DNA of 64,000 nt, from positions 328-64,327 of the forward strand of contig WRCC01000003.1 in NCBI GenBank assembly GCA_009784235.1. The letters are read 5' to 3'. Source of the stretch: Alphaproteobacteria bacterium (GTDB lineage: Bacteria > Pseudomonadota > Alphaproteobacteria > Rs-D84). Numbering within the stretch: position 1 is the stretch's first letter; every line of letters starts with the position of its first letter. The translations under genes and the position numbers were made by a program. Shown piece after piece: positions 691 through 60,985 of this stretch. Under the pieces are notes generated by a model. The model had not been told where the DNA came from, did not search any database, and worked only from the letters and a program-made list of their open reading frames with translations.

Positions 691-1890
691 ATGAACATCC
701 GCACCATAAACGAATTAACAGACATCGCCGGGAAATATATTTTGTTGCGCGATGATTTTAATGTGCAAATTGTTGATGGCAAAATCATGGATACTTTTCG
801 CATTGAACAATCTTTGCCGACGATTCGCAGGTTACAGGAAATGGGCGCGCGGATTGCGATTGTATCACATCTGGGTCGGCCGGATGGCGCGCCGGATTCA
901 AAATTTTCTTTGGCGCCCGTGGCATTTGCATTATCTGAATTATTGGGCGAACCAGTTCCATTAATATCGGACTGCATCGGCGAATCGGTGGCCGATGCAC
1001 GCCGTAATATGGAAAACGGCGACGTTGTGTTATTGGAAAACGTTCGGTTTCACGGTGGCGAAGAATCAAACGATTCGGAATTCGCGGCCGCATTGGCCCA
1101 TGGATTTAATATCTATATAAATGACGCATTTGCTGTATCGCATCGCGCACATGCATCAACCGTCGGTGTTACGAAATTTTTACCGGCATACGCGGGCGAA
1201 TTACTGGCGTCCGAAATTGCAGAATTATCACACGTTATGAATAATCCAACGCGGCCATTAATGGCCATTGTCAGCGGCGCGAAATTAAATACAAAAATCG
1301 ATGTGCTGGAATCAATGGTTACAAAGTGCGACACAGTTGCGGTATGCGGCGGAATCGGAACAACGTTCGCCATTGCATCCGGCAAATATAATTTTACCGA
1401 TATGTTGTATAAACCAGAATACAAAGAAATCGTATTACGCATTATGGCCGCGGCTGAAAAGCATGGATGCAAAATATTGTTGCCGATTGATAAAGGCGTC
1501 GGCCCGGAATGGGCCGCATCCGCGCCACGCACGGATAAAACTTTGTCCAATGTATTGGGCAGCGATGTGATAATGGACGAAGGCCCGGAATCAATTGCAC
1601 AAATCACAAATGCAATCGACGAATCGAAAACAATTATATGGAACGGTACGGTCGGAATGGCTGAATGGCCGCCGGTTTGGTCGGCGGGAACATTCGCGAT
1701 TGCAAAACACATCGCGTCGCGCACCCGCGCCGGCAAACTGGAATCCATTATCGGCGGCGGTGATACAGTCGCAGCATTGGAAGCAACGGACACAATGAAC
1801 GACATAACATACGTTTCAACCGGCGGCGGCGCATTTTTGGAATTTATCGAAGGCCGCGCCTTACCCGGCATTGTTGCATTGGAAAATTAA
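691..1890 (+). CDS. pgk: Phosphoglycerate kinase
   Basis: MNIRTINEL...FNVQIVDGKI..RI..SLPTI..L...GARIAIVSHLGRPDG and a C-terminal GGGDT..A...GGGAFLEF are typical Pgk. ATG at 691 follows an AAAAGGA SD. The TTG at 634 lies inside the repeat. Confidence 0.95.
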   Translation: MNIRTINELTDIAGKYILLRDDFNVQIVDGKIMDTFRIEQSLPTIRRLQEMGARIAIVSHLGRPDGAPDSKFSLAPVAFALSELLGEPVPLISDCIGESVADARRNMENGDVVLLENVRFHGGEESNDSEFAAALAHGFNIYINDAFAVSHRAHASTVGVTKFLPAYAGELLASEIAELSHVMNNPTRPLMAIVSGAKLNTKIDVLESMVTKCDTVAVCGGIGTTFAIASGKYNFTDMLYKPEYKEIVLRIMAAAEKHGCKILLPIDKGVGPEWAASAPRTDKTLSNVLGSDVIMDEGPESIAQITNAIDESKTIIWNGTVGMAEWPPVWSAGTFAIAKHIASRTRAGKLESIIGGGDTVAALEATDTMNDITYVSTGGGAFLEFIEGRALPGIVALEN

Positions 1891-1915
1891 AAAACGCGCA
1901 TAATGCGCGTTTTTT
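1889..1915. terminator. Bidirectional intrinsic terminator
   Basis: A-run, ACGCGCA-TAA-TGCGCGT, T-run. Lies between convergent pgk and the 1914-2555 gene. Confidence 0.7.
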
Positions 1916-2555
1916 AATTCACAATTTCTTGTCCGCGGCCAAACATCATGGCCATATTTTCTGTATTTGTTTTTTGATACTGCCGCCAGATTTTTTGTAA
2001 TTCTGTCGCCTGGTCTTCGGTTATAATACAGTTTGTGTCGTGACTGCCACCCATCACATTTCCAATCTCTGTTATAACTTTGCATGACGGGGAATTCGGA
2101 TTTACTTTTTTCGGGGCGCATTTTGGCTGCTCTATGCATTTGTCGCAGCTTATTTCAATGCGGTCAAAGAACAGCGTCGGCACAAGTTGTTGTATTACTT
2201 CTTTCTTATAGGCATCTGACAGCATACCCATTAATTTCGTTGCATCTTTTTCTGGAGCGTGCGCAAGAATTATTACCATAATAACTTCTGCTGCTATACC
2301 TCTGGCCAGCGCATAATCTTCTTCGCTGTTGATTACGTCTTTGTCCATCAGTTCTTCGATAAATTGCATCATTTTTGAAGCAAAATATTCCACGACCATG
2401 GACAATTTCATACGATGCGACATTTGCTGAAATTCGCGCATAGACAAAATGCGTTCCGATTTAACCGCAGCCTTGACCGCATTATACCAAGTTGGCACTG
2501 GCAAATCTTTTTTAATAAATTCTATAAACAATTTTTTGATTAAATTCGTGTTCAT
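1914..2555 (-). CDS. Hypothetical protein (213 aa)
   Basis: Long ORF 11 nt downstream of 2567-3352 on the same strand. No motif recognised. C-terminal half has several Cys (CDKCIEQPKC, SCK, NC). Confidence 0.55.
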   Translation of the reverse strand: MNTNLIKKLFIEFIKKDLPVPTWYNAVKAAVKSERILSMREFQQMSHRMKLSMVVEYFASKMMQFIEELMDKDVINSEEDYALARGIAAEVIMVIILAHAPEKDATKLMGMLSDAYKKEVIQQLVPTLFFDRIEISCDKCIEQPKCAPKKVNPNSPSCKVITEIGNVMGGSHDTNCIITEDQATELQKIWRQYQKTNTENMAMMFGRGQEIVN

Positions 2556-2566
2556 TTTTAAATTCC

Positions 2567-3352
2567 TTAATGTACTGGTTCACACCATTGAATAATGGCG
2601 TCCCAAAATCGGTGCAAGGCATCTGGGTTTTCGCCCCATGAAACTATTTCTACGCGATGCGCCAAATTTATTTTCTCTTTGATATTGTATGGTCGAACCG
2701 CCATTATTGCCGCATGTGTTGCATCACAATTTTCTGGGCGGTCTGGACATTTATTCAATACAAAATCTCTATCAAGCTGTAAATAATTCCGACATTCCCA
2801 GCACGCCATGCCATCCATTGTGTATCCGGGCATATTTATAAATACACCGGGAATTGATTTCATGTACGCTTCGTCTGCAGCGTCCCATTTGTCCGCAAAC
2901 TCAGATTGCCATTCACAAACACTATTCCACAAAGTCGCAAGTGTTTTCTTAGGCATTTTTATTTTATTTTTCGCCGCAATTTTATTCATCGTATTCCACA
3001 TAAAATCATCGGAATATAATGTCATATCTTCGTCCCAGTTTTCATCGCCCGCACAAAGCGACATCGCATCAAATTGTTTCATAAGATAAGTCAGCAAATA
3101 TAACATTTTTTGTCGAACGTTCATTTGCGGCAGTATTTGCTTTTTTTCATCCGCAACAACTTTTTTGGTTTTTTCGGAAAACAGTTTTGGATTTTCACAT
3201 TCTTGCAATATGCGTAAATTAACTTCGTCTGTCAGCATACTTTTTACCGCACGCGCAACCAAAGTATTGAACGAAGCACGCCCCAGAACTTCTTTTTTAA
3301 ATTTTGATATAACTGCATCTACTTCGGGAAATTGTGAATTTTTCTTTGGCAT
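2567..3352 (-). CDS. Hypothetical protein (261 aa)
   Basis: Long ORF forming a probable two-gene operon with 1914-2555. No motif recognised. Confidence 0.55.
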   Translation of the reverse strand: MPKKNSQFPEVDAVISKFKKEVLGRASFNTLVARAVKSMLTDEVNLRILQECENPKLFSEKTKKVVADEKKQILPQMNVRQKMLYLLTYLMKQFDAMSLCAGDENWDEDMTLYSDDFMWNTMNKIAAKNKIKMPKKTLATLWNSVCEWQSEFADKWDAADEAYMKSIPGVFINMPGYTMDGMACWECRNYLQLDRDFVLNKCPDRPENCDATHAAIMAVRPYNIKEKINLAHRVEIVSWGENPDALHRFWDAIIQWCEPVH

Positions 3353-3428
3353 CTTTTATCCATTTGACGAATATTATTTATTGCCATTTTAACCTTGTTA
3401 CAATTATTGTCAAGTTGTTTTACACGAC

Positions 3429-3456
3429 TTGATTTTATACAAAACAACGCTATAAT
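3429..3456 (+). promoter_or_regulatory. Candidate sigma70-type promoter for ftsY
   Basis: TTGATT (3429-3434), 16-nt spacer, TATAAT (3451-3456). The ATG at 3464 is 8 nt after the -10. Confidence 0.3.
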
Positions 3457-3463
3457 GACGCCT

Positions 3464-4342
3464 ATGGGCATATTTTCAAAAATTTCATCGATATTTACAG
3501 GCAAAAAAGAACTGGACGCGGCAAACGTCGAATTGTTGCGCGACGCATTGATTGGCGCAGACATTGCACCTGATTTGGCGGAACAATTGGTCGGCAAACT
3601 GCGCGCACGTGGTACGGTTACTGAATCAGAGGCCAAACAGATACTATTCGACGCCATGTTGCCGATTGTTGGCAAATTGGCCGGATGGCCGATTGCCAAC
3701 CATCTGCCCGTACCCGGAAAATCTGAATCCCCGATGGTAATTTTGATATCGGGTGTAAATGGCGCGGGAAAAACAACATCAATTGGCAAATTGGCTTCAT
3801 TTTGGAAAGACATGGGGCACAAAGTTGTAATCGGCGCAGCCGATACTTTCCGGGCAGCAGCATGCGAACAGCTGGCCGAATGGGCCGACCGCGCAGGTGC
3901 AGATTTAATCACCGGCACCGGCGACCCAGCGTCTGTGGCATACAAAGCCGTCGAACACGGCATCGCAGTCAAAGCTGATATTGTTATAATTGACACCGCC
4001 GGCCGGTTGCATAATCGTGCCGATTTGATGGACGAACTGGCCAAAATCACACGCGTAATACAAAAACTGGACCCTGGCGCGCCGCATGTATCCACGTTGG
4101 TGCTGGACGCGAATACCGGCCAAAATGCGCTGAACCAAATTGAATTTTTTAACAAAGCCGCGCCGCTGACCGGATTGATGGTCACAAAAATGGATTCAAC
4201 GGCCAAAGGTGGATTTTTGGTATCGTATGCAGCAAACAACAAGATTCCCCTGCCCGTCTATGGCATCGGCTATGGCGAAAAATTGCACGATTTGCGCCCA
4301 TTCAGTGCAGATGAATATCTGCATAAATTGTTGGGCATGTAA
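3464..4342 (+). CDS. ftsY: Signal recognition particle receptor FtsY
   Basis: GVNGAGKTTSIGKLA (P-loop), DTAGRLHN, TKMDSTAKGG are SRP-GTPase motifs. Start is uncertain (TTG 3395, ATG 3455 or ATG 3464). Confidence 0.9.
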   Translation: MGIFSKISSIFTGKKELDAANVELLRDALIGADIAPDLAEQLVGKLRARGTVTESEAKQILFDAMLPIVGKLAGWPIANHLPVPGKSESPMVILISGVNGAGKTTSIGKLASFWKDMGHKVVIGAADTFRAAACEQLAEWADRAGADLITGTGDPASVAYKAVEHGIAVKADIVIIDTAGRLHNRADLMDELAKITRVIQKLDPGAPHVSTLVLDANTGQNALNQIEFFNKAAPLTGLMVTKMDSTAKGGFLVSYAANNKIPLPVYGIGYGEKLHDLRPFSADEYLHKLLGM

Positions 4343-9177: not shown

Positions 9178-9240
9178 AAATCTCTCTTAATTAAAGATTT
9201 TATCAGAAATCAGAAATTCGTTCAAGCGGCTATTGCAAAT

Positions 9241-9406: not shown

Positions 9407-11581
9407 ATGTTCCAACCTGGTGATACTGTTTGCGTGTTGATTCCGAATGCTGGTGGCGGCAATGGTTATGATTATCGTCTGACCACGGCGGCGGAATGCG
9501 GCCAATTCGTTCGTGTAACCGTTATGAACCGCCCGTACGTTGGCGTAATCATCGGCCCGGGTACATCCAACCTGGCCCCAGAAAAAATCAAACCAGTTTT
9601 GGAAATTTTGGATTATAAATTATCATCCAGTGATTTGATATGGATAAAAAAAATGTCCGAATGGACAATGATGCCGATGGGCGCAGTGTTAAAATTAATT
9701 ATAAATATTCCAGACGCATTCAATCCGCCCAAAACCGAACCATTATATATTTATACGCCCGACCCAAAATCACGAATGACCGCCGGGCGTCAATCAGTCG
9801 CGGATGCATTCGCTGAAAATCCGGGCGAAGCACTGTCCGCGAATGATATTTCCCAAATCGCCCGCGTATCCGATACCATCGTTCGAACGATGATAAAAAA
9901 TGGGATTTTGAAATTACATGATAAAAAAATCATAAATCATAAATCCGAAATCATAAATTATTTCGACACCGGCAATATCAAATTAAATACCGAACAGCAA
10001 TCCGCCGCTGACCAGATTTCAGCTCTCAGTTCTCAGTTCTCAGTTCACCTGTTGGATGGTATAACGGGCAGCGGAAAAACCCAAGTCTATTTCGATGCCG
10101 CAATGCGAGTCTATGAATCCGGGAAATCCGTCCTGCTGATGATGCCGGAAATCGCATTGACCGCACAATTCCGCGGCCGATTTACCGACCGATTTGGCGC
10201 GCCGCCAATCGTATGGCATTCGAATCTGACCGCCGCGCGTCGGCGCAAAATATGGCGCGGCGTCGCATCTGGCGACATACGAATTATCGTTGGAACGCGC
10301 AGCGCATTGTTTTTACCATGGCGCGATTTGGGATTGATTGTCGTCGATGAAGAACATGACACTTCGTACAAACAGGAAGATATGGGAAATTATCACGCGC
10401 GCGATATGGCGATTTTGCGCGCTCATGTGCAAGATTTTCCGGTCATCTTGGCATCCGCGACACCGTCGGCTGAAACGGTTAAAAAAGTTGCCGACGGCGC
10501 ATATCGGGCCAGCCGCCTTACCTCTCGTTTTGGCGGCGCCACCCTGCCCCGCATCGAAACCATCGATATGCGCGTCCGCGAAAATAGATGTGACGATTCG
10601 CTTTCTGTACCGACGGCAAATGCGATTACGGAAACGCTGACCATGGGCCAGCAAGCCATGCTGTTCATAAACCGCCGCGGATTTGCACCGATTACACAGT
10701 GTAAATCTTGCGGATGGGTCGCCGAATGTCCGGATTGTTCCACCGGCATGACACATCATAAAAAAATCGGAAAATTGTTGTGCCATATATGCGGCCGCAC
10801 TGCACCGGCAACTCACGATTGCCCGGAATGTAATTCTGGCGAATTATCATCATCCGGCGCAGGTGTTGAAAAAATAGAATCCGAAGTTCGTGCGCGATGG
10901 CCAAACGCACGCACAGCAATCGTGTCATCTGATACAATGCAGTCGCGACAATCGTTGGAAAGATTGGTCGCACAGATGGAATCCGGCGAAATCGACATCA
11001 TAATCGGCACGCAAATTTTGGCAAAGGGGCATCATTTTCCGAACCTGACGCTGGTCGGTGTAATTGATGCGGACATGGGATTGTTCGGCACGGATTTCCG
11101 TGCGGCTGAAAAAACTTTCCAGCAATTATTCCAAGTCGCGGGCCGCGCCGGCCGCGGCCAGCATCCCGGCCGCGTGTTACTGCAAACCTACCAATCCGAA
11201 CATCCGGTATTTCGTGCGATTGTCGCGGGCGACCGGGATGCAGCGATGAATATGGATTTGTCCGCGCGTGAAAAAGCAATGATGCCGCCGTACGGCCAGC
11301 TGATTGCAATTATTGTCGAAGGGAAAAAAGAATCAGAGTTGCAAAAATTCTGCACCGACTTGGCCGCATCCGCACCGAAAATTATGGGTGGTGGCGGAAA
11401 AATAATGGGCCCAATTCCAGCACAAATTTATCAGATAAGAAATTGGTATCGAATGCGGTTTTTGGTCGCCGGTCCCGCACGCGCAAGACTGCAACCCGTT
11501 GTTGAATCATGGGTTTCAAAAATAAAAATTCCTGCAAACATCAAAATTAAAATCGATGTAAATCCACAGAATTTTATTTAA
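9407..11581 (+). CDS. priA: Primosomal protein N' (replication restart helicase PriA)
   Basis: Walker A GITGSGKT, DEEHD box, Cys-rich zinc region C..C...ECPDCS....H......LCHICG......CPEC, and C-terminal helicase motifs IGTQILAKGHHFPN and QVAGRAGR. Confidence 0.93.
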   Translation: MFQPGDTVCVLIPNAGGGNGYDYRLTTAAECGQFVRVTVMNRPYVGVIIGPGTSNLAPEKIKPVLEILDYKLSSSDLIWIKKMSEWTMMPMGAVLKLIINIPDAFNPPKTEPLYIYTPDPKSRMTAGRQSVADAFAENPGEALSANDISQIARVSDTIVRTMIKNGILKLHDKKIINHKSEIINYFDTGNIKLNTEQQSAADQISALSSQFSVHLLDGITGSGKTQVYFDAAMRVYESGKSVLLMMPEIALTAQFRGRFTDRFGAPPIVWHSNLTAARRRKIWRGVASGDIRIIVGTRSALFLPWRDLGLIVVDEEHDTSYKQEDMGNYHARDMAILRAHVQDFPVILASATPSAETVKKVADGAYRASRLTSRFGGATLPRIETIDMRVRENRCDDSLSVPTANAITETLTMGQQAMLFINRRGFAPITQCKSCGWVAECPDCSTGMTHHKKIGKLLCHICGRTAPATHDCPECNSGELSSSGAGVEKIESEVRARWPNARTAIVSSDTMQSRQSLERLVAQMESGEIDIIIGTQILAKGHHFPNLTLVGVIDADMGLFGTDFRAAEKTFQQLFQVAGRAGRGQHPGRVLLQTYQSEHPVFRAIVAGDRDAAMNMDLSAREKAMMPPYGQLIAIIVEGKKESELQKFCTDLAASAPKIMGGGGKIMGPIPAQIYQIRNWYRMRFLVAGPARARLQPVVESWVSKIKIPANIKIKIDVNPQNFI
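9927..9961 (+). repeat. 35-bp five-heptad element (AAATCAT)n, copy in priA
   Basis: AAATCAT AAATCAT AAATCCG AAATCAT AAATTAT. Translated in frame as ..IINHKSEIINY.. Confidence 0.8.
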
Positions 11582-12896
11582 GCAAATCCCCTGCTTTAAT
11601 ATATTCCGGCGAATCTTTGGGCAATTTGCGTTGCGCACGTCGGGCGAATTCACGTGACTTTTTATCTTGGCGTGTAACTGCATAATATTCTGCCATTGCC
11701 CAATCGGCCACGCCGGCATTTCCACGAACATTTTCTGCGCGCGACAAAACCCAGAACGCCAGCGGCAGACGCGATTCCAATAATGCACGCTTTGCCGCCT
11801 CGACCGAGCGGTCCGCATCACCCGGCTTATTGCGTTCAATTAATGCCAACCCGATTGCCGTTTGAATCTGTGCCATGTTGCAAAAGCGGTTACAAATCGG
11901 TCGCAATAATTCCAAAGATTTTTCATACGCAGCAATTGAATCATCATAACGCCCAGATTGATATTCTATATCGCCCAGCAATTCATAAAAGAATGGATTT
12001 TCGGGCAAACGCTTTATCAGTGTCAGCGTTCCCGTTTTTGCAGATTCCAAATTACCGATGCGCATTGCTGCAATTGCGCGTGCATACAGCGCTGGATTCG
12101 ATGTATCTTTTTGCGGATAAATTGCAATGACTGTCGCGGATGGCGATAAATATCCAATTATTTTTGCGCGTATCATTGCGTATTCATTGACCAATTTTTT
12201 ACGCGATGTGGTGGCCGCTTTTTTATCGTAACTGGCGCCCGCAATTTTTTCGCGCGCGTTTTTAATACGTTCGTCCGTGAATGGATGCCGCGCGTTGTTT
12301 GGATTTGCGCGCGATTCCATCGCCGACATCATATCGTTCATTTGTTTTATGACTAACAAAAAGCCTTCTGGGTCTAGCCCTGCCTTTAGCATCAGATCAA
12401 TACCCAGCGCGTCTGCCATGCGTTCTTCATCCCGACTGAACGCCAATAGTGATTGCCGCGACATGCCGCCTGCACCGGCAACAACACCCATGCCCGCCAT
12501 CGGATTCGCCGCAACCAATGCAATGCCCAATGCTTGGACAATCAGCGACCGTTTCATTTCCGCCGCCATCCGCACCGACATTTGCGCGATATGCCCGCCA
12601 ACCATGTGCCCCATTTCGTGCGCGATAACGGCTTGGAACGCATGCGGCGATTCCACGCGTGCGATGAGTCCGGTGTTCACAAATACGTCTTCGCCACCGG
12701 CAACAAACGCATTAAAATCATCATCGCCGATGATGCGAATATGTAATCGCCCCTCGTCCATTCCGGCCGCCTGCGCCAGCGGGTTCACCAGTTCATACAA
12801 TACAGACTCTATTTCAGTATCGCGAATTTCAGTCATACCAAACATGGCATGTGGCATAAAAAGCAAAACAAAAAATAATGCAAATATTTTTTTCAC
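11574..12896 (-). CDS. M48-family periplasmic metalloprotease with TPR region (BepA-like)
   Basis: Signal peptide MKKIFALFFVLLFMPHAMF, HEMGHMVGGH zinc motif, and a C-terminal TPR-like helical repeat region. Confidence 0.85.
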   Translation of the reverse strand: MKKIFALFFVLLFMPHAMFGMTEIRDTEIESVLYELVNPLAQAAGMDEGRLHIRIIGDDDFNAFVAGGEDVFVNTGLIARVESPHAFQAVIAHEMGHMVGGHIAQMSVRMAAEMKRSLIVQALGIALVAANPMAGMGVVAGAGGMSRQSLLAFSRDEERMADALGIDLMLKAGLDPEGFLLVIKQMNDMMSAMESRANPNNARHPFTDERIKNAREKIAGASYDKKAATTSRKKLVNEYAMIRAKIIGYLSPSATVIAIYPQKDTSNPALYARAIAAMRIGNLESAKTGTLTLIKRLPENPFFYELLGDIEYQSGRYDDSIAAYEKSLELLRPICNRFCNMAQIQTAIGLALIERNKPGDADRSVEAAKRALLESRLPLAFWVLSRAENVRGNAGVADWAMAEYYAVTRQDKKSREFARRAQRKLPKDSPEYIKAGDLLK

Positions 12897-13020
12897 AATG
12901 TGATTATAAATTAAAAGTTAATAATTAAAAATCAAAAAATTGCACGATGCGCCCCTTAGACGATACATTATTTTTTTGCAAATTCCACCAGATTTCTGTC
13001 CTAGGCAAAGGTTCTTACAG

Positions 13021-16153: not shown

Positions 16154-17401
16154 CTAGTCGTTAGCAATAAAAAGATTCCATTCGTCATTTCTGCGATTTA
16201 TCAGTCCGTTCGATACTTTTCCTTGTGTCTTATTCCATGCTTTCCATGCAGACTCTGGGGTTGGATATGCATTGCTTTTAAAGTTCGGATTATTCACATA
16301 TTGTCGTATTGTAGACTCTTTTAAGCCGCCCGCGCCAATATTGTATGTTAGTGACACCAAGGCATCGAACTTATTCTGACTGATAGGAACATCTATATAA
16401 TTTCTAACAGCATTTTCAGCGGCACGAACATCTTGGTGAAATAAATCCATAGCTTCTTTCTCGGTCAAGCCTTTGCTGAAATCTTCCCCTGGTTTTATAA
16501 GGTGTCCATAGCCGATTGTTGCGCCAGGGGGCAATGGTTGACCTTCTGGCACAGGTTTCCCTGTAGCGTCATCGTATATCACATGTCTACCATCAACCAT
16601 TACTTTATTTTCATATCCCTTTAAAAATTCCATTCCTTTTTCGCTAAGCTGCATTTCGCGTACCTTTTCTTTTTCCTTCAGTTCTTTATACTTTTGCTGT
16701 TTTTTCGCGCTGGGCTTGCCGTATTTTTTCTTGTATTCAGAGCCAGGCATTCTAATCGCTTCGCAATTGCAATTGGGATGCGGCTTTGGAACATGATCAT
16801 CGTCAAGAATCGTTCCATCCATTTCTTCACAAACTTCACACGGATTATCACCATTGCAAGACCACACGTAGTAGAATTTTTCCGGATCTGGGTCTGGGAT
16901 TGGGTCGTCTCCATCTTCATCTGGTTCTATAATTTCAATATCGAAAATTTCTAAATTCCTTAAATCTATTATCTCGTTTTCTTCATCTAACAGAACTCTG
17001 ACCGGTATGATTTCGGATATAAAAACTCGGATTTCTACTTCTGGTTTATCTTTATCCTTTGCGTATGATTCACTATCCGCATCGCCACCTTCGCCGTCTC
17101 CACCATCTTCTGATTCCTCTTCATCATTGTCATCATCATCTTCCAACGAACGTCTAATTTCAGCAATCCGTTCTTCTAATTCTTCTTGAATTTTTCGCTG
17201 TAACTCCTCAAATTGTTCCAAAGTCATATCATAATCTGGCCCTTTCATCTTGCCAGTTGCGTCGAATTCCATGCTGCCGGGATAGAACATCTGTAAGTAT
17301 TCCGTCACTTTCTCATTAGTTTGTGCAAAATCTGGATTGCTTCTATTTGTGTAGGCATTTGATTGCATCATCTTTCTTAAAAATTTTGGTGTCTTCATCA
17401 T
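16154..17401 (-). CDS. Fusion protein: acidic N-terminal region + phage MuF/SPP1-gp7-type C-terminal motif + GH24 (T4-type) lysozyme domain
   Basis: YYVWSCNGDNPCEVCEEMDG.......PKPHPNCNCE matches the MuF-domain end motif. The C-terminus (FLKGYENKV...YDDATG...TIGYGHL......LTEKEAMDLFHQDV..A........F.ALVSLTYNIG) matches the T4-lysozyme fold pattern, including the catalytic E and D positions. Confidence 0.8.
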   Translation of the reverse strand: MMKTPKFLRKMMQSNAYTNRSNPDFAQTNEKVTEYLQMFYPGSMEFDATGKMKGPDYDMTLEQFEELQRKIQEELEERIAEIRRSLEDDDDNDEEESEDGGDGEGGDADSESYAKDKDKPEVEIRVFISEIIPVRVLLDEENEIIDLRNLEIFDIEIIEPDEDGDDPIPDPDPEKFYYVWSCNGDNPCEVCEEMDGTILDDDHVPKPHPNCNCEAIRMPGSEYKKKYGKPSAKKQQKYKELKEKEKVREMQLSEKGMEFLKGYENKVMVDGRHVIYDDATGKPVPEGQPLPPGATIGYGHLIKPGEDFSKGLTEKEAMDLFHQDVRAAENAVRNYIDVPISQNKFDALVSLTYNIGAGGLKESTIRQYVNNPNFKSNAYPTPESAWKAWNKTQGKVSNGLINRRNDEWNLFIAND

Positions 17402-17775: not shown

Positions 17776-17852
17776 TGGTCGGGGTGAAAGGGTTCGAACC
17801 TTCGACCTCTACGTCCCGAACGTAGCACTCTACCAGGCTGAGCTACACCCCG
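17776..17852 (-). tRNA. tRNA-Pro (anticodon CGG)
   Basis: Reverse complement: CGGGGTG TA GCTC AGCCTGGTA GAGT G CTACG TTCGGGA CGTAG AGGTC GAAGG TTCGAAC CCTTT CACCCCG A CCA. Full cloverleaf, C1-G72, 77 nt. Confidence 0.9.
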
Positions 17853-17921: not shown

Positions 17922-20900
17922 TTAAAAGTTTGCCCGAATACCCATATTGGCGCCATAGTTCTTGAACTCTTTGTCGCCGTGCTGGTATGTGAATTCCCCG
18001 AACATGCCCATTCTGGCCGTGATTTCGCCGACCAAACCGATACCGTATTCATAACGGCTTTGCGGCAATTCGGAATTCAGCAGCACGCCGTCATAAGTAA
18101 TATTCGTCCGGCCATCGAATTCGCGCAGGTATGTAAATTTTGCATACGGCTGGACGGATTCAAAGTTATATCGCATCAGGAATCCGACTTGTCCGGATAA
18201 TGACGAACTGGCGTCATATTGGCCTGTGAATCCCGCGCTGTCTGTAAATTTATCGCCGTCGATATATGCATATACCAATTCTGCGCGCGGCTCCAGAATC
18301 AATCTGTCGGTCGCCTTGTATTGGTATCCCAGTTCCGCGCTGACCATAGCCACCAGCGATTTGGTCGTATAATCGATTTTATTGTCGGCGCCGTCGTAAT
18401 AGTATGCATAGCTGTCCAAAAATGCCATACGACCGATCAGGTCGATATAAACATTGCTGGGGAACAATGTCGTTAAATAAATATTCGCGTATGGAACAGT
18501 TGCACTGCCGCCGCCGTCGCGCGACGCCAATGCCGATGTTTTATGACTGGCCGAATTTATACCCGCGCCGCCGCCCAGAATCATGCGCGTTGTGGAACCG
18601 CCCAGCATATCGCGGTCGATGCCTGCTTCGGCGCCGAAATTATTGCCTTTGACTTTGGTCAAATCGTTGAATTCGGTCTGGTTTCCATAAGTACGCGCCC
18701 AAACACGGGTCTTGGACACAGGTCCAGCCAATCGCAAATCACCCAGACGTTTGTGCAACGCATTTTGAATATCGCGCACGGCATAATGGAACCGATGCGC
18801 ACCGTGCATTCCGATATTGGTCGCCGCATCAGACAGCGTCGGAACAAACACATCGCCGCCACCGCCGTTGCCATTTCCGTCATCCGGAATTTCGATACAA
18901 TTATCACCGACACAATTCAGCGACCATATACCGGCATTATTCGCCAGCACATAATTGCGCGCGCCGATACCAACATAGTCTGCACCGTTCGCCAGCGTGA
19001 AATTCATAATACCGGATTGGTCGTCGATTAATTCCAATCCTTGGATGACGCCGACATTCGCCGCACCCACGGCCAATTTATGGTCCACCACGCCCCAATC
19101 CAACACAGATAATATCGTCAGATGGTCGGCGATGCCCGCATCATAATCGGTATTCATCACGAATGTGATATCGCTGTGCGCGTCCAGCTGGGAAATGGTC
19201 GCAGTCTTGAAATCCGCGGTATAATGCGAAAACTCGATTCTTGCACCCGCTGCTTCATCACCGACCAATATCCGCGGCAATATCAGATTATTATCCGAAA
19301 TAATAATGCTGGAATTTTCGCCGGACATGGCGAATGTGATATTCGAATCGTAAGTATATTGCTTTAATTCCAATATTCCACCGCCCGCGCCTATATTCAC
19401 GTCGCGCGCGAATATATTATTTGCATCCGATGCGCCCAGCAATAAATACCCGCCTGGATTTAAATCCAAAGTTGACCCGCCCGATTCTACATTACCGATA
19501 ATAATCAGATTATCGATATTGCCCAAATCGGCATCGCGACCGATATTGTTCAAATATCCACCATGAAATGCATTAATAAACCCGCCGTTGAAATTATCAA
19601 TATACGCGCGGTCGGTCATCATGCCGATTGAGCCGCCAGTCATCAAGCCCATCCAGGACGACCCAGAAAAATCATGAATATAACCCGCCGTCATGCTGCC
19701 CACTGAACCTTGGTGAATGGTTCCAATATCGCCACCGGTCATTAATCCAATATACGCATCGTCATGAATATCATCGATGCGACCGCTGGTTATTGTTCCG
19801 ATACTGCTGCTGCGCAGATTACGAATATTGCCGCTGGTCATCATGTCGATATGGCTGCCCCCGCTGATATCCTGGATTTCGCCGCCCATCAGCAGACCGA
19901 TGTGTCCGCCGTTTTTAATGTTTCCAATCTGGCCATTAAACATCGCCACGATATTTCGTCCGTCCAAATTCTCTATACGGCCACCAAACATATTTTCAAT
20001 CGTGCCACCGGAAACAGTGCCGACATATCCGTCGAACAAATTGGTAATAACGCCACCGGTCATGGAATCAATACGAGTGTATCCTTCGTTATACATATTT
20101 CGAATTTCGCCGGCATTGTTATTTATGGTGCCATTGGTAAATCTGTTAATCGTGCCACCATTATGATATACGATTGTGCCGCCGCGCATATTTTCGATGT
20201 ATCCGTTGGACTTGTTTATAATCGTGCCAAAGTTCATATTGTTAATGCGCGCATCGCCGTTCATCGCGTATATTGTGCCGTCATACATATTATCGATACG
20301 CGCATTTCCGGACATCGACATAATCAAAGAATTATCATACATATTATATATGTGCCCGCCCGTCATAGACCGAATATTTCCGTAATTCCGCAGCGTGCCG
20401 ATATATCCGCCCTGCATATTGTTGATTTGTCCGCCGTGCAAGGTGTCGATATTACCGTTGATAAAATTCTGGACTTCGCCGCCGTACATGTTGCTGATGC
20501 GGCCATAGTTAATATTGGTGATTCGTCCGTTGTTCATGCTATAGACAGTTGCAGAATCATTCAGGTTATTTATAACGGCGCCCCATCCGTTCATGTTATC
20601 GATTCTGGCATAACTGATATTATTAATCGTCCCGCCGTACATATTGTAAATTATAGCATTTTCGTAATAATAATTGGTCCATCCGCCTGGATTCCAAACA
20701 CTGGCATATCCATTGACATTATCTATATATCCACCGTTCATATTATTTATGATGGTTGCGGTCGCATTACTGGAATTCATGTTGTACAGATAAGCACCAC
20801 TGTTCAGATTATTTATGGTGCCACCATACATATAGCCGCCCCACTGATTAAAAGAATCCCACCATTCGCCGTGGTTTATCGATACCGAATGCGATGGCAT

Positions 20901-20948
20901 TGCAGCAATAGAAAAAACAACCGCTGAAGTTAAAAATAATTTTTTCAT
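17922..20948 (-). CDS. Autotransporter (type Va) with highly repetitive passenger
   Basis: Signal peptide MKKLFLTSAVVFSIAAMPSHS after a GGGAGAGG SD. The passenger is dozens of GGxIxNM-like units. The C-terminal ~280 aa has an alternating beta-strand pattern ending ..GANMGIRANF, typical of an autotransporter barrel. Confidence 0.88.
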   Translation of the reverse strand: MKKLFLTSAVVFSIAAMPSHSVSINHGEWWDSFNQWGGYMYGGTINNLNSGAYLYNMNSSNATATIINNMNGGYIDNVNGYASVWNPGGWTNYYYENAIIYNMYGGTINNISYARIDNMNGWGAVINNLNDSATVYSMNNGRITNINYGRISNMYGGEVQNFINGNIDTLHGGQINNMQGGYIGTLRNYGNIRSMTGGHIYNMYDNSLIMSMSGNARIDNMYDGTIYAMNGDARINNMNFGTIINKSNGYIENMRGGTIVYHNGGTINRFTNGTINNNAGEIRNMYNEGYTRIDSMTGGVITNLFDGYVGTVSGGTIENMFGGRIENLDGRNIVAMFNGQIGNIKNGGHIGLLMGGEIQDISGGSHIDMMTSGNIRNLRSSSIGTITSGRIDDIHDDAYIGLMTGGDIGTIHQGSVGSMTAGYIHDFSGSSWMGLMTGGSIGMMTDRAYIDNFNGGFINAFHGGYLNNIGRDADLGNIDNLIIIGNVESGGSTLDLNPGGYLLLGASDANNIFARDVNIGAGGGILELKQYTYDSNITFAMSGENSSIIISDNNLILPRILVGDEAAGARIEFSHYTADFKTATISQLDAHSDITFVMNTDYDAGIADHLTILSVLDWGVVDHKLAVGAANVGVIQGLELIDDQSGIMNFTLANGADYVGIGARNYVLANNAGIWSLNCVGDNCIEIPDDGNGNGGGGDVFVPTLSDAATNIGMHGAHRFHYAVRDIQNALHKRLGDLRLAGPVSKTRVWARTYGNQTEFNDLTKVKGNNFGAEAGIDRDMLGGSTTRMILGGGAGINSASHKTSALASRDGGGSATVPYANIYLTTLFPSNVYIDLIGRMAFLDSYAYYYDGADNKIDYTTKSLVAMVSAELGYQYKATDRLILEPRAELVYAYIDGDKFTDSAGFTGQYDASSSLSGQVGFLMRYNFESVQPYAKFTYLREFDGRTNITYDGVLLNSELPQSRYEYGIGLVGEITARMGMFGEFTYQHGDKEFKNYGANMGIRANF

Positions 20949-21012
20949 GAATCCTCTCCCGTTATTATACAATAGGAATTCTATCACATAATCATGAAAT
21001 AAAAAAGGTGTT

Positions 21013-31370: not shown

Positions 31371-31408
31371 AAATAAACACTGTCTAATATATTAGACAGT
31401 GTTTATTT
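31371..31408. terminator. Perfect 38-bp palindrome (bidirectional terminator)
   Basis: AAATAAACACTGTCTAATA / TATTAGACAGTGTTTATTT. Lies between convergent 30636-31331 and prmC and overlaps the prmC stop. Confidence 0.65.
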
Positions 31409-32185
31409 GAACACCAAGACCCTTTCTATTTCTGATAAATCGTCATACGAACCAACAAACTGCCATTCGTTGCGCGTAAATACTTCCCGTACGGCATCGC
31501 CCTGGCCCGCACCGATTTCCAAAAATATTTTGCCACCAGGTGCCAAATGTTCACGCGCGGATTTTGCAATCGCGCGATACGCATCCAATCCATCTGCACC
31601 CGCATAAAGCGCAATTTTCGGGTCGTGCATCGCACCTGCATCCACGCGCAGGTCACCAATTGCGATGTATGGTGGATTTGAAATAATAATATCGAATTTC
31701 TGATTTATGATTTCTGATTTATGATTTAAGTTATTAAAATTTCCGCGCAAAATTTTAACCCTATCTTCCAATCCGTGTCGTTTTACATTCCGACGCGCAA
31801 TACGAATTACGGCGCGCGAAATATCGATACCGACACCTGTCGCACCCGGAATGTTTTTTACAATTGAACAAATTAAACATCCAGTACCGGTTCCCAGGTC
31901 GAGGATTTTCATGTTTTTATTATTTTTATTTTCCAGCACTGCTTCGACCAACGTTTCGCTATCCGGCCTTGGGTCCAATGTATGTCGGCTTGTTTCAAAC
32001 TCCATACCGTAAAACCATTTTTTGCCGACAATTTTCGCCACCGGCACACCGCGTCGTAATTTCCGCGCAGCAAAATGAATGCGAAATCGCAAAAACGATT
32101 TGCCTTGAATACTATTCAACACAACCTTTGCGTCGCGTGGGTTGCTGGCCCGGGCCAATATCTGGAATGCTTGATTTAATGTCAT
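31403..32185 (-). CDS. prmC: Release factor glutamine methyltransferase (PrmC/HemK)
   Basis: ILDLGTGTGC (SAM motif I) and IISNPPYI (NPPY catalytic motif). Confidence 0.88.
   Translation of the reverse strand: MTLNQAFQILARASNPRDAKVVLNSIQGKSFLRFRIHFAARKLRRGVPVAKIVGKKWFYGMEFETSRHTLDPRPDSETLVEAVLENKNNKNMKILDLGTGTGCLICSIVKNIPGATGVGIDISRAVIRIARRNVKRHGLEDRVKILRGNFNNLNHKSEIINQKFDIIISNPPYIAIGDLRVDAGAMHDPKIALYAGADGLDAYRAIAKSAREHLAPGGKIFLEIGAGQGDAVREVFTRNEWQFVGSYDDLSEIERVLVFK
31693..31727 (-). repeat. 35-bp five-heptad element, copy in prmC
   Basis: The minus strand reads AAATCAT AAATCAG AAATCAT AAATCAG AAATTCG. Translated in frame as ..LNHKSEIINQKF.., just before the NPPY motif. Confidence 0.8.
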
Positions 32186-39673: not shown

Positions 39674-39937
39674 CGGGTCGGTTAAAGTAATTATTACGCG
39701 ATTTGTGCGAAGATAAAATCGCACAGGGCGCGGCAAACCGGCGAAGATGTATAATATACATCAAGACGGTTTAACAAAGCGATGTGGGATTTTAGCCGCA
39801 TCGCAAAGCGACGGCGATAATTTGAATCAATAACTGCGAATTTTGTTTGAATGTATATTATAAATCCTGCACAAAATTCTTGTTCTTGTTTAAAATTCTC
39901 TGCCGCAAATCGCACAATAATTACTTTAACCGACCCG
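39674..39937. repeat. Inverted-repeat-bounded 264-bp element (MITE-like)
   Basis: Left end CGGGTCGGTTAAAGTAATTATT (39674-39695) is the exact reverse complement of 39916-39937. Pairing extends to ~34 bp with 3 mismatches. The interior has no credible ORF. Confidence 0.65.
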
Positions 39938-39939
39938 CT

Positions 39940-41766
39940 ATGAAAAAATTAATATCAAAATGTAAATCATTTATCAAAAACGATGATAAAGAAGCCCAGA
40001 TAAAATGGTCTTTGTACGGTCGCGTTTGGCGCGAAATCGGCAAACCGCAATGGAAATGGCTGTTGGGTGGTATCCTGGCCACAATCGTTGCCGCCGCTGC
40101 CGAAGCTTATACGATTGTACTAATCCGCCAAGTTATTGACCAAGGATTTATCGAAAAAAGCATGTCCGTGATGTATATCGTCGGATTGCAGGTTATTGCT
40201 GCATTCGGCGCGAAAAGTATTTTCGGATATGCAAAAACTCTGTTAATGGCCAAAGCTGGCCTTATGGCTGCAACCGGATTGCGCCAACGTATTTACCGGC
40301 ACATGGTGCGATTGAACATCGCAAACTTTTCTGCATCACGCACCGGCGAATTGATGAATTATTATACTGTCCAGGCGGGCGCCGTCTTGACACTGGTCAC
40401 CGAAACAATCATCAGCATGGTTCACAACAGCGCGACTATATTAATGATGGTAATATTGATGTTCTGGTTCGCGCCGCAAATGGCCGCGGTATTGTTGTTC
40501 TTGGTGCCGGCAATTATCGTGCCGCTGATTATTATCATGCGTAAAAAACGGAAATTATCACGCAAATCATTCGGCATTGCCGCAGATTCCAGCAACCATG
40601 TAAACCAAACAATCCAAGGCATCAAGACCATCCAGTCATTTGGCACCGAAACGGATGAAATCGGCAAATTCCGCGATATAGAACGCGCAAGTATCAGCAA
40701 TGCGTATAAACAAACCCAGCTGGCCGGCATACAATCGCCGCTGCTGGAAATTATGATATCCGTCGGATTGTGTTTGTCGTTGATTGTCGGCGGGCATTTT
40801 GTAACATCAGGCGCGATTTCAACTGGTGATTTTGCGGCGTTTATTCTGGCGCTGACGGCCGCGTACCAGCCGGTTAAAAAAATTACCGGTATTAACGGCG
40901 GTATACAAACCGGCCTGATTGCGTCGGAAAATCTGTTCCGGTTTTTGGATGCAAAATCACAAATCACAAATTCGCGTGGCGCAGTGCCGATTAAATCCAA
41001 AAAATTGCGCGTGGCGCTGGAAGATGTTCATTTCGCATATAATGTCGCAGATGGCGAAGTATTGCGCGGCATATCGTTGGATGTGCGACCTGGCCAAGTA
41101 TGCGCATTGGTCGGTCCATCTGGCGGCGGAAAATCGACTGTATTCAATTTGATTGAGCGGTTTTATGACCCGCAAAGCGGCCGCGTCTTGATTGATAACA
41201 AAGACCTGCGAAATTATACCCTGGAATCATTGCGCAAAAATATCGCGATTGTTTCCCAAGACGTATTCTTGTTCCACGGGTCAATTGCCGACAATATTAA
41301 ATACGGCATGCCATGCGCAACAATGGAACAAATCGTGGCCGCCGCAACGGCCGCAAACGCGGATGAATTTATCAAAGAATTACCGCACGGGTACGATACA
41401 AATGTTGGTGAACGCGGCACATTATTGTCCGGCGGCCAGAAACAACGCATTGCGATTGCACGCGCAATACTGAAAGACGCGCCGATATTATTGTTGGACG
41501 AAGCGACCAGCGCACTGGACACACAAAGCGAAAAATTAATCCAATCCGCACTTCGCGGATTGATGCGTGGCCGCACAACATTCGTAATTGCACACCGCCT
41601 GTCCACTATATTGGACGCGGATATAATTTGCGTTATCAAAGGCGGACTGATTGTCGAACGCGGCACAGACAAAGAATTGGTCAAAATGAATGGTGAATAT
41701 AAAAAATTAAAAGATATACAATTCAAAGAAGACAAGAAAAAGAGCCCGAAAAAATCATCCAAATAA
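39940..41766 (+). CDS. ABC transporter, fused permease/ATPase (MsbA/ABCB-type exporter)
   Basis: Six-TM N-terminal half. Walker A GPSGGGKST, signature LSGGQKQRIAIARA, Walker B ILLLDEATSALD. Confidence 0.9.
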   Translation: MKKLISKCKSFIKNDDKEAQIKWSLYGRVWREIGKPQWKWLLGGILATIVAAAAEAYTIVLIRQVIDQGFIEKSMSVMYIVGLQVIAAFGAKSIFGYAKTLLMAKAGLMAATGLRQRIYRHMVRLNIANFSASRTGELMNYYTVQAGAVLTLVTETIISMVHNSATILMMVILMFWFAPQMAAVLLFLVPAIIVPLIIIMRKKRKLSRKSFGIAADSSNHVNQTIQGIKTIQSFGTETDEIGKFRDIERASISNAYKQTQLAGIQSPLLEIMISVGLCLSLIVGGHFVTSGAISTGDFAAFILALTAAYQPVKKITGINGGIQTGLIASENLFRFLDAKSQITNSRGAVPIKSKKLRVALEDVHFAYNVADGEVLRGISLDVRPGQVCALVGPSGGGKSTVFNLIERFYDPQSGRVLIDNKDLRNYTLESLRKNIAIVSQDVFLFHGSIADNIKYGMPCATMEQIVAAATAANADEFIKELPHGYDTNVGERGTLLSGGQKQRIAIARAILKDAPILLLDEATSALDTQSEKLIQSALRGLMRGRTTFVIAHRLSTILDADIICVIKGGLIVERGTDKELVKMNGEYKKLKDIQFKEDKKKSPKKSSK

Positions 41767-43298: not shown

Positions 43299-44396
43299 TT
43301 ACGCCGCCGCCTGCATACCACGTTTTGATTCGCGAACGTGCGCGCGCAAATTATCAATTGGAACCAATGTTCCATCGTCTTTTTCTGCCGACCAATAATC
43401 CCATCCGTTAAAAGACACTGCGCCTTGGATTTTTGCCGCCATAATATGAATTGAATGCTTGCCCAATAATGTATGCTGCAATTGCGCGTCCTTTGTGACC
43501 ATCACTCGGTCGCCGCGCCGACCAACCAAAGTCTGGCCGACATACAGCAATCCGGCCGATATCAATTCCACAAATGCAACGCGTGCTTCTTCGCGTTTTG
43601 CGGCAACTTCGATTGATGATAAATCAATCGGCCGTACGTCGGCAATGCGCGTACGCGCGCCGGCAATATAAGATTCTTCGCGTTCAATTCCAATCCAGTT
43701 GCGTCCCAGCTCTTTTGCCACCGCGCCCGTCGTTCCCGAACCAAAAAACGGGTCCAGGATTATATCGCCCTGCTTGGTCGATGCCAATATTACGCGGCGC
43801 AATAAATCCATAGGTTTTTGCGTATTGTGCAAAGATTTTCCGTCCGTGCCCTTTAACCGTTCGCCGCCCAGACATATATTTATATCCCAGTCCGACCGCA
43901 TCTGTTTGCCACCGGCAAATTTCTTCATGGTGTCGTAATTGAAAGTATAAGCGCCCGTTTTGGACGGCGTCGCCCATATTAATGTTTCATGCGCGTTCGT
44001 GAACCGCGTGCCGCGAAAATTCGGCATCGGATTGGTTTTGATCCAAATGATATCGTTCAGAATCCAGAATCCCAAATCTTGCATCGCAGCGCCAACACGG
44101 AAAATATTGTGATAGCTGCCGATGACCCACATGGACCCGTTCGGTTTTAAAACGCGACGACATTCGGCCAGCCATTCGCGTGTAAAAGCATCATATTCGG
44201 CGGCCGACGCAAATTGGTCCCAATCGTCGCGCACGGCACGCGCGGCCGTTTGGTCTTCGGGCCGGTACAGTGTTTTCACACCCAACTGCAAATTGAACGG
44301 TGGGTCGGCAAAGACCGCATCAATGGACGCATCCGGCAATTCGCGCATACGCGCGATACAGTCGCCCTGTAAAATGGTGTTAATCCACTCTCTCAT
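43299..44396 (-). CDS. ccrM: Cell-cycle-regulated DNA adenine methyltransferase CcrM (GANTC-type)
   Basis: Collinear by eye with Caulobacter CcrM: GDCI..M..LP..S.D..FADPPFNLQLG, WVIGSYHNIFRVG...QDLGFWILNDI.W.K.NPMPNF.GTRF.NAHETLIWA, ILDPFFG.GTTGA.AK.LGR..IGIERE. Motif IV is DPPF rather than DPPY. Confidence 0.92.
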   Translation of the reverse strand: MREWINTILQGDCIARMRELPDASIDAVFADPPFNLQLGVKTLYRPEDQTAARAVRDDWDQFASAAEYDAFTREWLAECRRVLKPNGSMWVIGSYHNIFRVGAAMQDLGFWILNDIIWIKTNPMPNFRGTRFTNAHETLIWATPSKTGAYTFNYDTMKKFAGGKQMRSDWDINICLGGERLKGTDGKSLHNTQKPMDLLRRVILASTKQGDIILDPFFGSGTTGAVAKELGRNWIGIEREESYIAGARTRIADVRPIDLSSIEVAAKREEARVAFVELISAGLLYVGQTLVGRRGDRVMVTKDAQLQHTLLGKHSIHIMAAKIQGAVSFNGWDYWSAEKDDGTLVPIDNLRAHVRESKRGMQAAA

Positions 44397-44494
44397 CCAT
44401 GCATTTTACCATAAATCGCGCGACCAAAAAAGCACCCTGCCCCGTGCCATATGAAAATAAATCGCTTGATTTTTCCCCAAAAAGCACTTTTTCC

Positions 44495-44529
44495 AAATCA
44501 TAAATCATATATCATAAATCATAAATTTT
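44495..44529 (+). repeat. 35-bp five-heptad element, intergenic copy upstream of nrdR
   Basis: AAATCAT AAATCAT ATATCAT AAATCAT AAATTTT. Lies 39 nt upstream of the nrdR ATG, in the ccrM/nrdR divergent region. Confidence 0.8.
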
Positions 44530-44567
44530 CCTTTACAGATGCCCATTTTTTTACTAAATTCCTATGC

Positions 44568-45077
44568 ATGAGATGCCCATACTGCGCCAGTATAGATTCC
44601 CAGGTCAAAGATTCGCGTCCGAACGAAGAAGACGCGACAATCCGCCGTCGCCGCGTGTGTTCTGAATGCGGTGCAAAATTCACGACCATTGAACGCGTCC
44701 AGATTCGCGATTTGTCTGTTCGGAAAAACAACGGCTCGCTGGAATCTTTTGACCGTGAAAAGATGAAACGCTCTATCAAGGTCGCATGTCGCAAGCGTGA
44801 TATTTCCGAAGACCAGATTGAAAAACTGGTGACCAGTATCCACCGCCGACTGGAAACCGAAACGCCGGACGATATTGTGCCATCCGATACGATTGGCCAG
44901 ACAATCGCAGATTCCCTGATTTCGCTGGACCCGATTGCATTTATCCGATTTGTGTCTGTATATCGTAAATTTACAAAAATCACGGATTTCAAAAAAATTA
45001 TCGCCCAGATTCCGGAACCAGACGATACGGCCGATGTGTGCGAATTACCAAAAAAATACCGCAGTTCGCTGTTTTAA
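44568..45077 (+). CDS. nrdR: Transcriptional repressor NrdR
   Basis: MRCPYC....QVKDSRP........RRRR.C..CG.KFTT.ER (zinc ribbon) followed by an ATP-cone. Confidence 0.92.
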   Translation: MRCPYCASIDSQVKDSRPNEEDATIRRRRVCSECGAKFTTIERVQIRDLSVRKNNGSLESFDREKMKRSIKVACRKRDISEDQIEKLVTSIHRRLETETPDDIVPSDTIGQTIADSLISLDPIAFIRFVSVYRKFTKITDFKKIIAQIPEPDDTADVCELPKKYRSSLF

Positions 45078-60298: not shown

Positions 60299-60847
60299 TT
60301 AACCAGCATTGGTCCGACGACGTACCGTCGCGGTTGCCTTTGCACCGCCTGCTTTGGCCGCTGGGGCTTTGGCCGGGGTGGCGACTTTGGCTTTCGGCGC
60401 AGCTGCTTTTGGCGTCGCAGTTCTTGCTTCCGCTTTCACAGCTTCTGTTTTCGTGGTTTCCGTTTTCGGTTTGCCTTTGGCGGCCGGGTCGCGGTCAACG
60501 AATTCAATAATCGCCATCGGCGCAGCGTCGCCATAACGGAATCCGGCTTTCAATACGCGGGTGTATCCGCCCGGACGCCCTGCATAACGCGGTCCCAAAA
60601 CCGTGAATAATTTTTTCACAGCCGCGGTGTCATTGCCCAGTTCAGCGGCAACCAAGCGACGATTCGCGACGCTGTCGGTTTTTGCACGTGTAACCAGTTT
60701 TTCAACAATGCTGCGCAGCGTCTTGGCTTTGGGCAAAGTTGTTTTGATTTGTTCGCGTTCAATCAAAGATTTCGATTGATTCAAGAACAATGCTTTGCGT
60801 GCACTGTGATCGCGGTTGAATTTTTTTGTTGCTTTCATATGTCTCAT
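60299..60847 (-). CDS. rplQ: 50S ribosomal protein L17 with Ala/Lys/Pro-rich C-terminal extension
   Basis: [22 protein letters not shown]......E...I.TTLPKAK..R..VEKL.T.AK, then GGYTR..K...R.GD.A.MA.IE.V. ATG at 60847 follows an AGGAG SD. Confidence 0.92.
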
Positions 60848-60985
60848 AAGACGCTCCTGTGTTTGTTGTTGCCCCTTTGGGGATTGATTTGCAATATATC
60901 CTGAAAAAAATTCCCAGTAATACATTTTTCATAGGGGCGTATCGCATACGCCCCTACATTCTACAAATAATTTTGCGATGCAAAA

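Follow-up and report, generated by a model that had tools for sequence, protein, structure and literature searches.

Why should a bacterium carry the same run of heptanucleotides three times within 64 kb, twice in frame inside essential genes? The question is raised by the 64,000-nt stretch analysed here (the window; positions 328 to 64,327 of contig WRCC01000003.1, assembly GCA_009784235.1, contained in a 498-kb ENA contig), which derives from an uncultured gut alphaproteobacterium and carries tandem arrays of AAATCAT-type heptads in priA, in prmC and upstream of nrdR. A sequence-only reading had taken these arrays for one dispersed element that enters permissive protein segments in frame in the manner of Rickettsia palindromic elements (RPEs). 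We instead favour, with a probability of roughly 60%, the view that the AAATCAT runs, rather than being copies of a mobile element, are lineage-wide heptanucleotide microsatellites of 4-5 units (28-35 nt) that homogenise themselves and are filtered by selection. The class is that of the known, poorly understood heptamer simple sequence repeats (SSRs), which in the present case lie in frame within essential genes and evolve in concert.

Direct reading of the sequence gave exactly the letters first described, namely AAATCAT AAATCAT AAATCCG AAATCAT AAATTAT in priA (9927-9961, plus strand), AAATCAT AAATCAG AAATCAT AAATCAG AAATTCG in prmC (31693-31727, minus strand) and AAATCAT AAATCAT ATATCAT AAATCAT AAATTTT upstream of nrdR (44495-44529, plus strand). 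Tandem Repeats Finder reported period 7 with 4.6-4.7 copies at each of the three loci, and the prmC array is at the same time a perfect 14-nt super-repeat, (AAATCAT AAATCAG)2 followed by AAATTCG (period 14, 100% match). When the 21-mer (AAATCAT)3 was searched with up to three mismatches, these three sites were its only matches in the window, and 100 shuffled versions of the window contained none, ruling out chance or base composition as the source of the arrays and bearing out the suspicion that they are non-random. The count of three thus stands at this stringency, and two further short AAATCAN arrays have to be added to it (see below).

Hardly any tandem-repeat period other than 7 occurs in the termite-gut alphaproteobacterial clade. 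In the window, four strong arrays were found at lag 7 and none at the other lags from 4 to 13, with none in shuffled sequence, and relaxed thresholds returned four to five arrays at lag 7 versus zero to one at other lags. Likewise, 614 kb of relatives contained 12 such arrays at lag 7, as against one or none at each other lag. Across 248 kb of termite-clade loci we counted 37 heptad arrays built from 26 different units, with other periods reaching at most 11 each; AAATCAN-type units are the commonest and make up about one third of these heptad arrays. The Enterousia-type clade yielded two heptad arrays in 612 kb, and array density is therefore about 50-fold apart between the two sister clades on the loci examined, those of the termite clade having been chosen around known arrays.

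The same sites hold different units in different relatives. In the priA linker, the window and relative L006 share an identical 35-mer of the AAATCAT type and L002 has a near copy of it, while the same position is occupied by (AAATCAG)4 in L001, (AAAYCCG)5 in L242, (CACRCCG)4 in L010, (AAAGCAG)3 in L238, (GAGCGRA)3 in L003, (CAAAGAG)3 in L068 and decayed versions in L239-L241 and L023. The prmC loop, which carries an AAATCAK unit in the window, holds (AAATCAY)4 in L247, (AAATCAG)4 in L248, (AAATCTC)4 in L081, (TCTTACC)4 in L085 and (CATCATC)4 in L249, each of these relatives' arrays being bounded by the conserved F and F-D. In the region upstream of nrdR, the position that follows a conserved AAATAAAnnCTTGATTTTT box holds (AATTCAT)4 in L230, (TCAGYTY)4 in L231 and 8-mers in L233 and L218, and no array was found there in Enterousia-type relatives. 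Each array examined at the three sites consists of four full units and part of a further one. Within an array, the units share an identity of 0.75, whereas the value falls to 0.39 for orthologous units compared between species and to 0.31 for non-array relatives, and this difference between the within-array and between-species values is a signature of concerted evolution. With different units at the three sites in sister genomes, and 26 units among the 37 arrays of clade relatives, the proposal of one dispersed element is not supported.

At closer range, the arrays are preserved at the DNA level. Between the window and L006, priA DNA is 67.5% identical and the array is identical at 35/35 positions; among codons for identical residues, 11/11 are identical in the array as opposed to 49% elsewhere in priA (P ~4e-4), and the corresponding count against L002 is 9/9. 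The DNA identity between the window and L006 stops at the array edges, which makes a recent recombination tract unlikely for this pair; recent recombination was accordingly rejected as the cause of the 35/35 match with L006, and it is possible for the cases in clade B described below. In all, two window arrays are common to species whose PriA is only ~68-70% identical, and they are nearly unchanged there. The nearest PriA relatives come from termite-gut metagenome-assembled genomes (MAGs) with about 70% identity, none being closer than 73%, and Candidatus Enterousia is more distant. Four assemblies with identical PriA protein, possibly from one community, are 100% identical in DNA over the arrays that they cover. 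Scans of metagenome contigs with patterns spanning the array flanks, which match the window, recovered no copies, that of the known contig included, in a collection that evidently lacks the source sample. Protein periodicity at lag 7 is enriched in both the PriA and the PrmC loops; conserved residues inflate other lags as well (lag 10 in PrmC), and the periodicity therefore counts as no more than support.

Both coding arrays sit in genes whose identity, as first proposed, is well founded: priA for the replication restart helicase (9407-11581, plus strand; TIGR00595, 607 bits), which hosts two arrays, and prmC for the release-factor glutamine methyltransferase (31403-32185, minus strand; TIGR03534, 218.8 bits against a cutoff of 199.1), which hosts one. 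Alignments and predicted models agree that these copies fall in variable surface segments. The first priA array encodes PriA residues ~174-185 (IINHKSEIINY, in the wider peptide ..KKIINHKSEIINYF..) and aligns to the E. coli PriA linker that joins the winged-helix domain to helicase lobe 1; in the predicted model the segment is a coil of reduced confidence (predicted local distance difference test, pLDDT, of 69 for residues 171-180). The prmC array encodes NHKSEIINQKF (..NNLNHKSEIINQKFD..) in the loop between strand KILRG and motif IV, FDIIISNPPY, where the pLDDT of the predicted model dips to 75 for residues 151-160. Relative to ~80 orthologues, the first array brings no extra residues to PriA, whose linker measures ~17 residues with or without it, and the PrmC loop is longer by 1 to 5 residues and not by 11 (3-4 over non-array relatives, 5 over E. 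coli HemK). A lineage-specific in-frame insertion of the RPE kind, as had been suggested, does not agree with a constant PriA linker and so small a gain in PrmC.

The peptide NHKSEIIN common to both enzymes had been pointed out, together with the same orientation and frame of the array. The sense orientation is indeed shared; the phase is not, as the array starts at codon position 2 in priA and at codon position 3 in prmC and upstream of nrdR, and NHKSEIIN begins in unit 2 of the priA array and in unit 1 of the prmC array, an offset of one unit. Since 7 and 3 have no common factor, the cyclic seven-residue peptide specified by a heptad repeat does not depend on which frame of a given strand is read (for AAATCAT it is K-S-stop-I-I-N-H), and the shared octapeptide therefore requires only that the same strand be read, which leaves nothing notable in it. 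A perfect (AAATCAT)n contains an in-frame TAA once per 21 nt, and the odd unit of each copy falls exactly at this codon (TCC GAA in priA, TCA GAA in prmC, TCA TAT upstream of nrdR). The description of five units with a degenerate last one is likewise correct in its letters, and the last unit turns out to be adjoining conserved codons: AAT TAT for N-Y in priA, with the Tyr kept across the family, and AAA TTC GAT for K-F-D in prmC, with F-D invariant ahead of NPPY.

A mechanism that would fit these observations has two parts. Arrays would arise, and their units would stay alike, through DNA synthesis that misaligns in a 7-nt register, that is, by slippage or by short patch conversion between neighbouring units, and a 7-nt loop is bigger than mismatch repair normally corrects. 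Once established, an array could last long at its site and its unit sequence would drift in concert. Selection would then set which arrays survive: coding arrays would be confined to unconstrained surface linkers, with an overall length divisible by 3, no in-frame stop and a hydrophilic peptide, which would favour the A-rich strand as sense, and they would end at the first conserved codons. We infer the slippage or conversion step, as well as the neutrality of the coding copies at the protein level; the PriA and PrmC copies would thus be tolerated spacers that have no function of their own, and the copy upstream of nrdR would be an unstructured A-rich leader or a promoter-upstream tract, possibly with a modest effect on expression.

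Several points weigh against this view. Slipping by 7 nt would shift the reading frame of an essential gene, and species do not differ by 21 nt in array length; simple slippage therefore cannot homogenise the coding arrays, for which length-preserving patch conversion has to be assumed. Neither period 7 nor the ceiling of 4-5 units is accounted for by slippage or conversion. Perfect conservation of an array at ~67% identity could equally mean selection for a DNA or RNA function, and AAATCAN is the commonest unit, with all five AAATCAN arrays of the window in sense orientation. The density contrast between the sister clades is inflated, since picking termite-clade loci around known arrays biases their density upward. 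Finally, three PriA proteins of the Enterousia clade (P0013, P0009 and P0011; L235, L236 and L240) have linkers made of AAATCAN arrays, while their closest relatives have the ancestral RAIENENRFIYEYRDMG linker; being nested among such relatives, they require either transfer of a patch or its re-creation. In P0013 and P0009, both of clade B, the array-bearing patch that replaces the ancestral linker spans 57-60 nt and includes DTG in place of DMG.

The alternative that survives best is that the arrays are functional cis-elements, either a binding array for a DNA or RNA factor or an unstructured A-rich leader, kept by selection at the nucleotide level in the coding copies as elsewhere; we regard it as possible, if doubtful. 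It would accommodate the common sense orientation of the five AAATCAN arrays in 64 kb, as well as the 35/35 nt and 11/11 codons shared with L006, and it draws on a wider distribution. A degenerate AAATCAN pattern had at least 119 matches among species genomes, spread over many phyla. Among the matches listed, 101/109 arrays are 3-5 units long, the pattern itself having demanded more than three units, and arrays just 5' of the ATG of a long open reading frame (ORF) are in sense orientation in 25 cases versus 3 antisense, commonly at a distance of 2-7 nt. Heptads that act in cis are also on record, in the TTTTGAT repeats that recruit regulators at the Vibrio cholerae ctxAB promoter (bioRxiv 10.1101/2021.05.14.444153) and in the Nostoc heptamers near recF and recO, which lie near starts and affect expression (bioRxiv 10.1101/2022.06.06.494920), and the nrdR leader is predicted to be wholly unstructured with a promoter-like site right after the array. 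Against a cis-element stands the turnover of units: quite different units occupy all three sites in sister genomes, which makes a conserved sequence-specific reader unlikely. Moreover, the priA and prmC positions are protein-tolerant loops that end at conserved codons, the sense bias of the coding copies is explained by peptide hydropathy and by stops on the other strand, and no Rfam family matches. A structured RNA or a known RNA family was ruled out separately: Rfam returned two tRNAs only in the window, and the arrays are unpaired in predicted RNA folds (z-scores -0.48, -0.16 and +1.52) and are neither palindromic nor hairpin-forming.

A mobile, RPE-like element entering permissive loops in frame is very improbable. 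The added residues might speak for it: 1-5 in the PrmC loop relative to relatives or E. coli, two at the second priA array, and ~30 in frame in the priA of L238, where the addition consists of two inverted heptad arrays. So might the 57-60-nt array patch that has replaced the ancestral linker in P0013 and P0009. On the other hand, the PriA linker keeps its length in ~80 orthologues, 35 nt make no whole number of codons, the same sites hold other units, of which the clade relatives have 26 types, and direct reading of the three AAATCAT copies showed unrelated flanks with neither a terminal inverted repeat nor a target duplication, in addition to the missing secondary structure. Protein-level selection for NHKSEIIN or for a seven-residue periodic motif is scarcely credible, because, despite the occurrence of one octapeptide in two unrelated essential enzymes and the K-S-E-[IV]-x-N-Y retained by the decayed arrays of L239-L241, the identical peptide is a matter of arithmetic whichever frame of the strand is read, unrelated peptides occupy the site in sister species (e.g., HTARRTPHT, PLTSYLLPLT and HHPSSIIHYP), synonymous sites are conserved, which such selection does not predict, and the non-coding copy upstream of nrdR has the same DNA.

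Contingency loci, i.e., the phase-variable SSRs of Haemophilus and Neisseria, resemble the coding arrays in being non-triplet coding repeats that would cause a frameshift if the unit number changed. They differ in that the arrays of the window are interrupted, short and placed in essential housekeeping genes, with both priA arrays nearly unchanged in other species. A phase-variable locus was rejected on the interrupted tracts in priA and prmC, their identity in four assemblies and the retention of the priA array in L006 and L002.

Among described repeats, heptanucleotide SSRs are the closest counterpart. Their excess in bacteria and a polymerase-footprint slippage hypothesis are on record (PMC4692102), with Xanthomonas GGGAATC and Nostoc GGGNATC arrays as characterised examples, and the long-unit SSR class of Mrazek et al. 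2007 is relevant as cited there. Like these repeats, including the short tandemly repeated repetitive (STRR) sequences of Calothrix and Nostoc, the present arrays consist of tandem 7-nt units in many dispersed copies with period 7 favoured, a mode of ~4 units and occasional inverted pairs. The described examples favour intergenic positions and are scarcer than expected in coding sequence; in the window, by contrast, at least half of the arrays are in frame inside essential genes, which sets the present case apart within the class. G-quadruplexes cannot account for the four-unit preference here because these units consist of A, T and C. We know of no description of persistence at orthologous sites with turnover of the unit for bacterial heptamer repeats.

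The TAACTGA direct repeats of Beggiatoaceae, cyanobacteria and Bacteroidetes (MacGregor 2015, PMC4679880) are also heptamers, occur in sets of 2-6 copies mostly just 5' of starts, and span distant phyla; a few copies in ORFs lie at protein peripheries with stop codons setting their orientation, and a role as translation leader has been proposed. In those genomes a single unit dominates and related heptamers are rare; here, many units are present, and they occupy internal loops of housekeeping enzymes. Read on the opposite strand, the ctxAB heptad TTTTGAT gives AAATCAA, which differs from AAATCAT by one base, and its 3-8 tandem copies just 5' of the promoter are comparable to the array upstream of nrdR with its promoter-like 44532-44560; the ctx repeats are bound by a regulator, and their copy number varies between strains. 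RPEs are ~100-150 bp long, palindromic and true insertions. The likeness to them is that essential proteins of an alphaproteobacterium accommodate repetitive DNA, read in frame, in their surface loops; the difference is that the present arrays are tandem heptads of 28-35 nt that have no secondary structure and add no length to PriA.

A bolder version of the microsatellite reading, which we offer as a rather unlikely speculation, holds that a dedicated or lineage-specific property of DNA synthesis recodes unconstrained stretches of ~30 nt into four to five heptads at unchanged length and maintains their uniformity in essential genes too, with protein linkers being recoded all the time, and that the same process might underlie the heptamer excess across phyla, with (AAATCAN)n co-opted just 5' of start codons as leaders that replace Shine-Dalgarno sequences. 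If the microsatellite reading is true, the appealing idea of a mobile element that enters genes in frame and brings a conserved peptide gives way to a testable explanation. Persistence at the same site in essential genes, concerted turnover of units and preservation of synonymous sites appear to be new for bacterial heptamer repeats. The replication and repair genes of the array-rich and array-poor sister clades can be compared, which makes the question of 7-nt repeats more tractable. Furthermore, arrays of this sort account for odd low-complexity peptides in proteins from MAGs, and they could be of use for telling strains apart.

The non-coding array lies between nrdR (44568-45077, plus strand), to which it is sense, and a divergent neighbour, ccrM, encoding a CcrM-type methyltransferase (43299-44396, minus strand). 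The match to TIGR00244 starts at residue 40 of the long ORF, which places the nrdR ATG at 44568; the location upstream of nrdR is thus as first described, with the array ending 38 nt and not 39 nt before this ATG. A putative promoter, TTTACA-17-TAAATT at 44532-44560, matches the consensus and starts 3 nt past the array, and the leader RNA has no predicted structure (minimum free energy 0). The nrdR frame is open from an ATG at 44451 through the array to 45077, and the only deviation of the array, TAA to TAT, keeps it open. An N-terminal extension of NrdR through the array was considered and is doubtful: the L230 array has in-frame stops, and the NrdR models begin at MRCPYC; the open frame is probably coincidental. 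The AAATAAAnnCTTGATTTTT box, at 44455-44480 and ~100 nt 5' of nrdR, is present in most relatives with the ccrM-nrdR arrangement (L215-L234) in both clades, and is probably a shared promoter or operator.

Further arrays accompany the main sites in priA and prmC. The second priA array, (TCAGTTC)4 at 10019-10046 (plus strand), encodes SALSSQFS directly ahead of the Walker A strand; a homologous array, (GTTCYCG)4, is present in L002, and L001, L006, L010 and L023 have none and are two residues shorter. The unit TCAGTTC and the heptamer TAACTGA of Beggiatoaceae and cyanobacteria, taken as its reverse complement, differ by one base, which may be coincidence. In L238, the additional in-frame segment of priA (2645-2766, within the gene at 1482-3752) consists of inverted arrays, (AGTGTGG)5 and its complement, lengthening the protein by ~30 residues, and L241 has another array at that position (4172-4203). 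Inverted pairs of heptad arrays that form long hairpins occur in L001 (3787-3857), L118 (1843-1982 and 7169-7295), L143 and L146 (300-400), and one inverted pair in a sister MAG lies directly 3' of the priA stop codon in a terminator-like position. In prmC, a second hot-spot precedes motif I, with (AAAGAGC)5 in L248 (461-499) and a GGGTAT-type unit in L249 (10253-10281), and PrmC of the window has the low-complexity stretch ENKNNKNMK before motif I.

Inside genes lie 5/8 of the window arrays (two in priA and one each in prmC, msbA and rplQ). One of the two short AAATCAN arrays, ATCAG AAATCAG AAATTCG at 9202-9220 (plus strand), is intergenic, ~185 nt 5' of priA and sense to it; the other, AAATCAC AAATCAC AAATTCG at 40954-40974 (plus strand), is in frame in a gene for an MsbA-type ABC exporter (39847-41766) and encodes KSQITNS. 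A weak, degenerate array of about four units (60443-60472, minus strand; ~TTCGGTT on the plus strand, 70% matches) falls in the C-terminal tail of ribosomal protein L17 (rplQ, 60299-60925, minus strand), and a degenerate AT-rich array of ~5 ATTAAAA-like units (12903-12938) is intergenic and adjoins the start of an M48 protease gene (11574-12896, minus strand). Across phyla, the (AAATCAN)3-5 arrays (L096-L214; e.g., L096 at 869-900, L134, L140 and L205) sit at the Shine-Dalgarno position, and the arrays accompanying them, among the matches listed, comprise 97 of period 7, 29 of period 14 and at most 20 of any other period, some as inverted pairs. Elsewhere in the window, a pertactin-type autotransporter gene (17922-20987, minus strand) and a gene with a phage-lysozyme domain (16154-17401, minus strand) adjoin tRNA-Pro (17776-17852).

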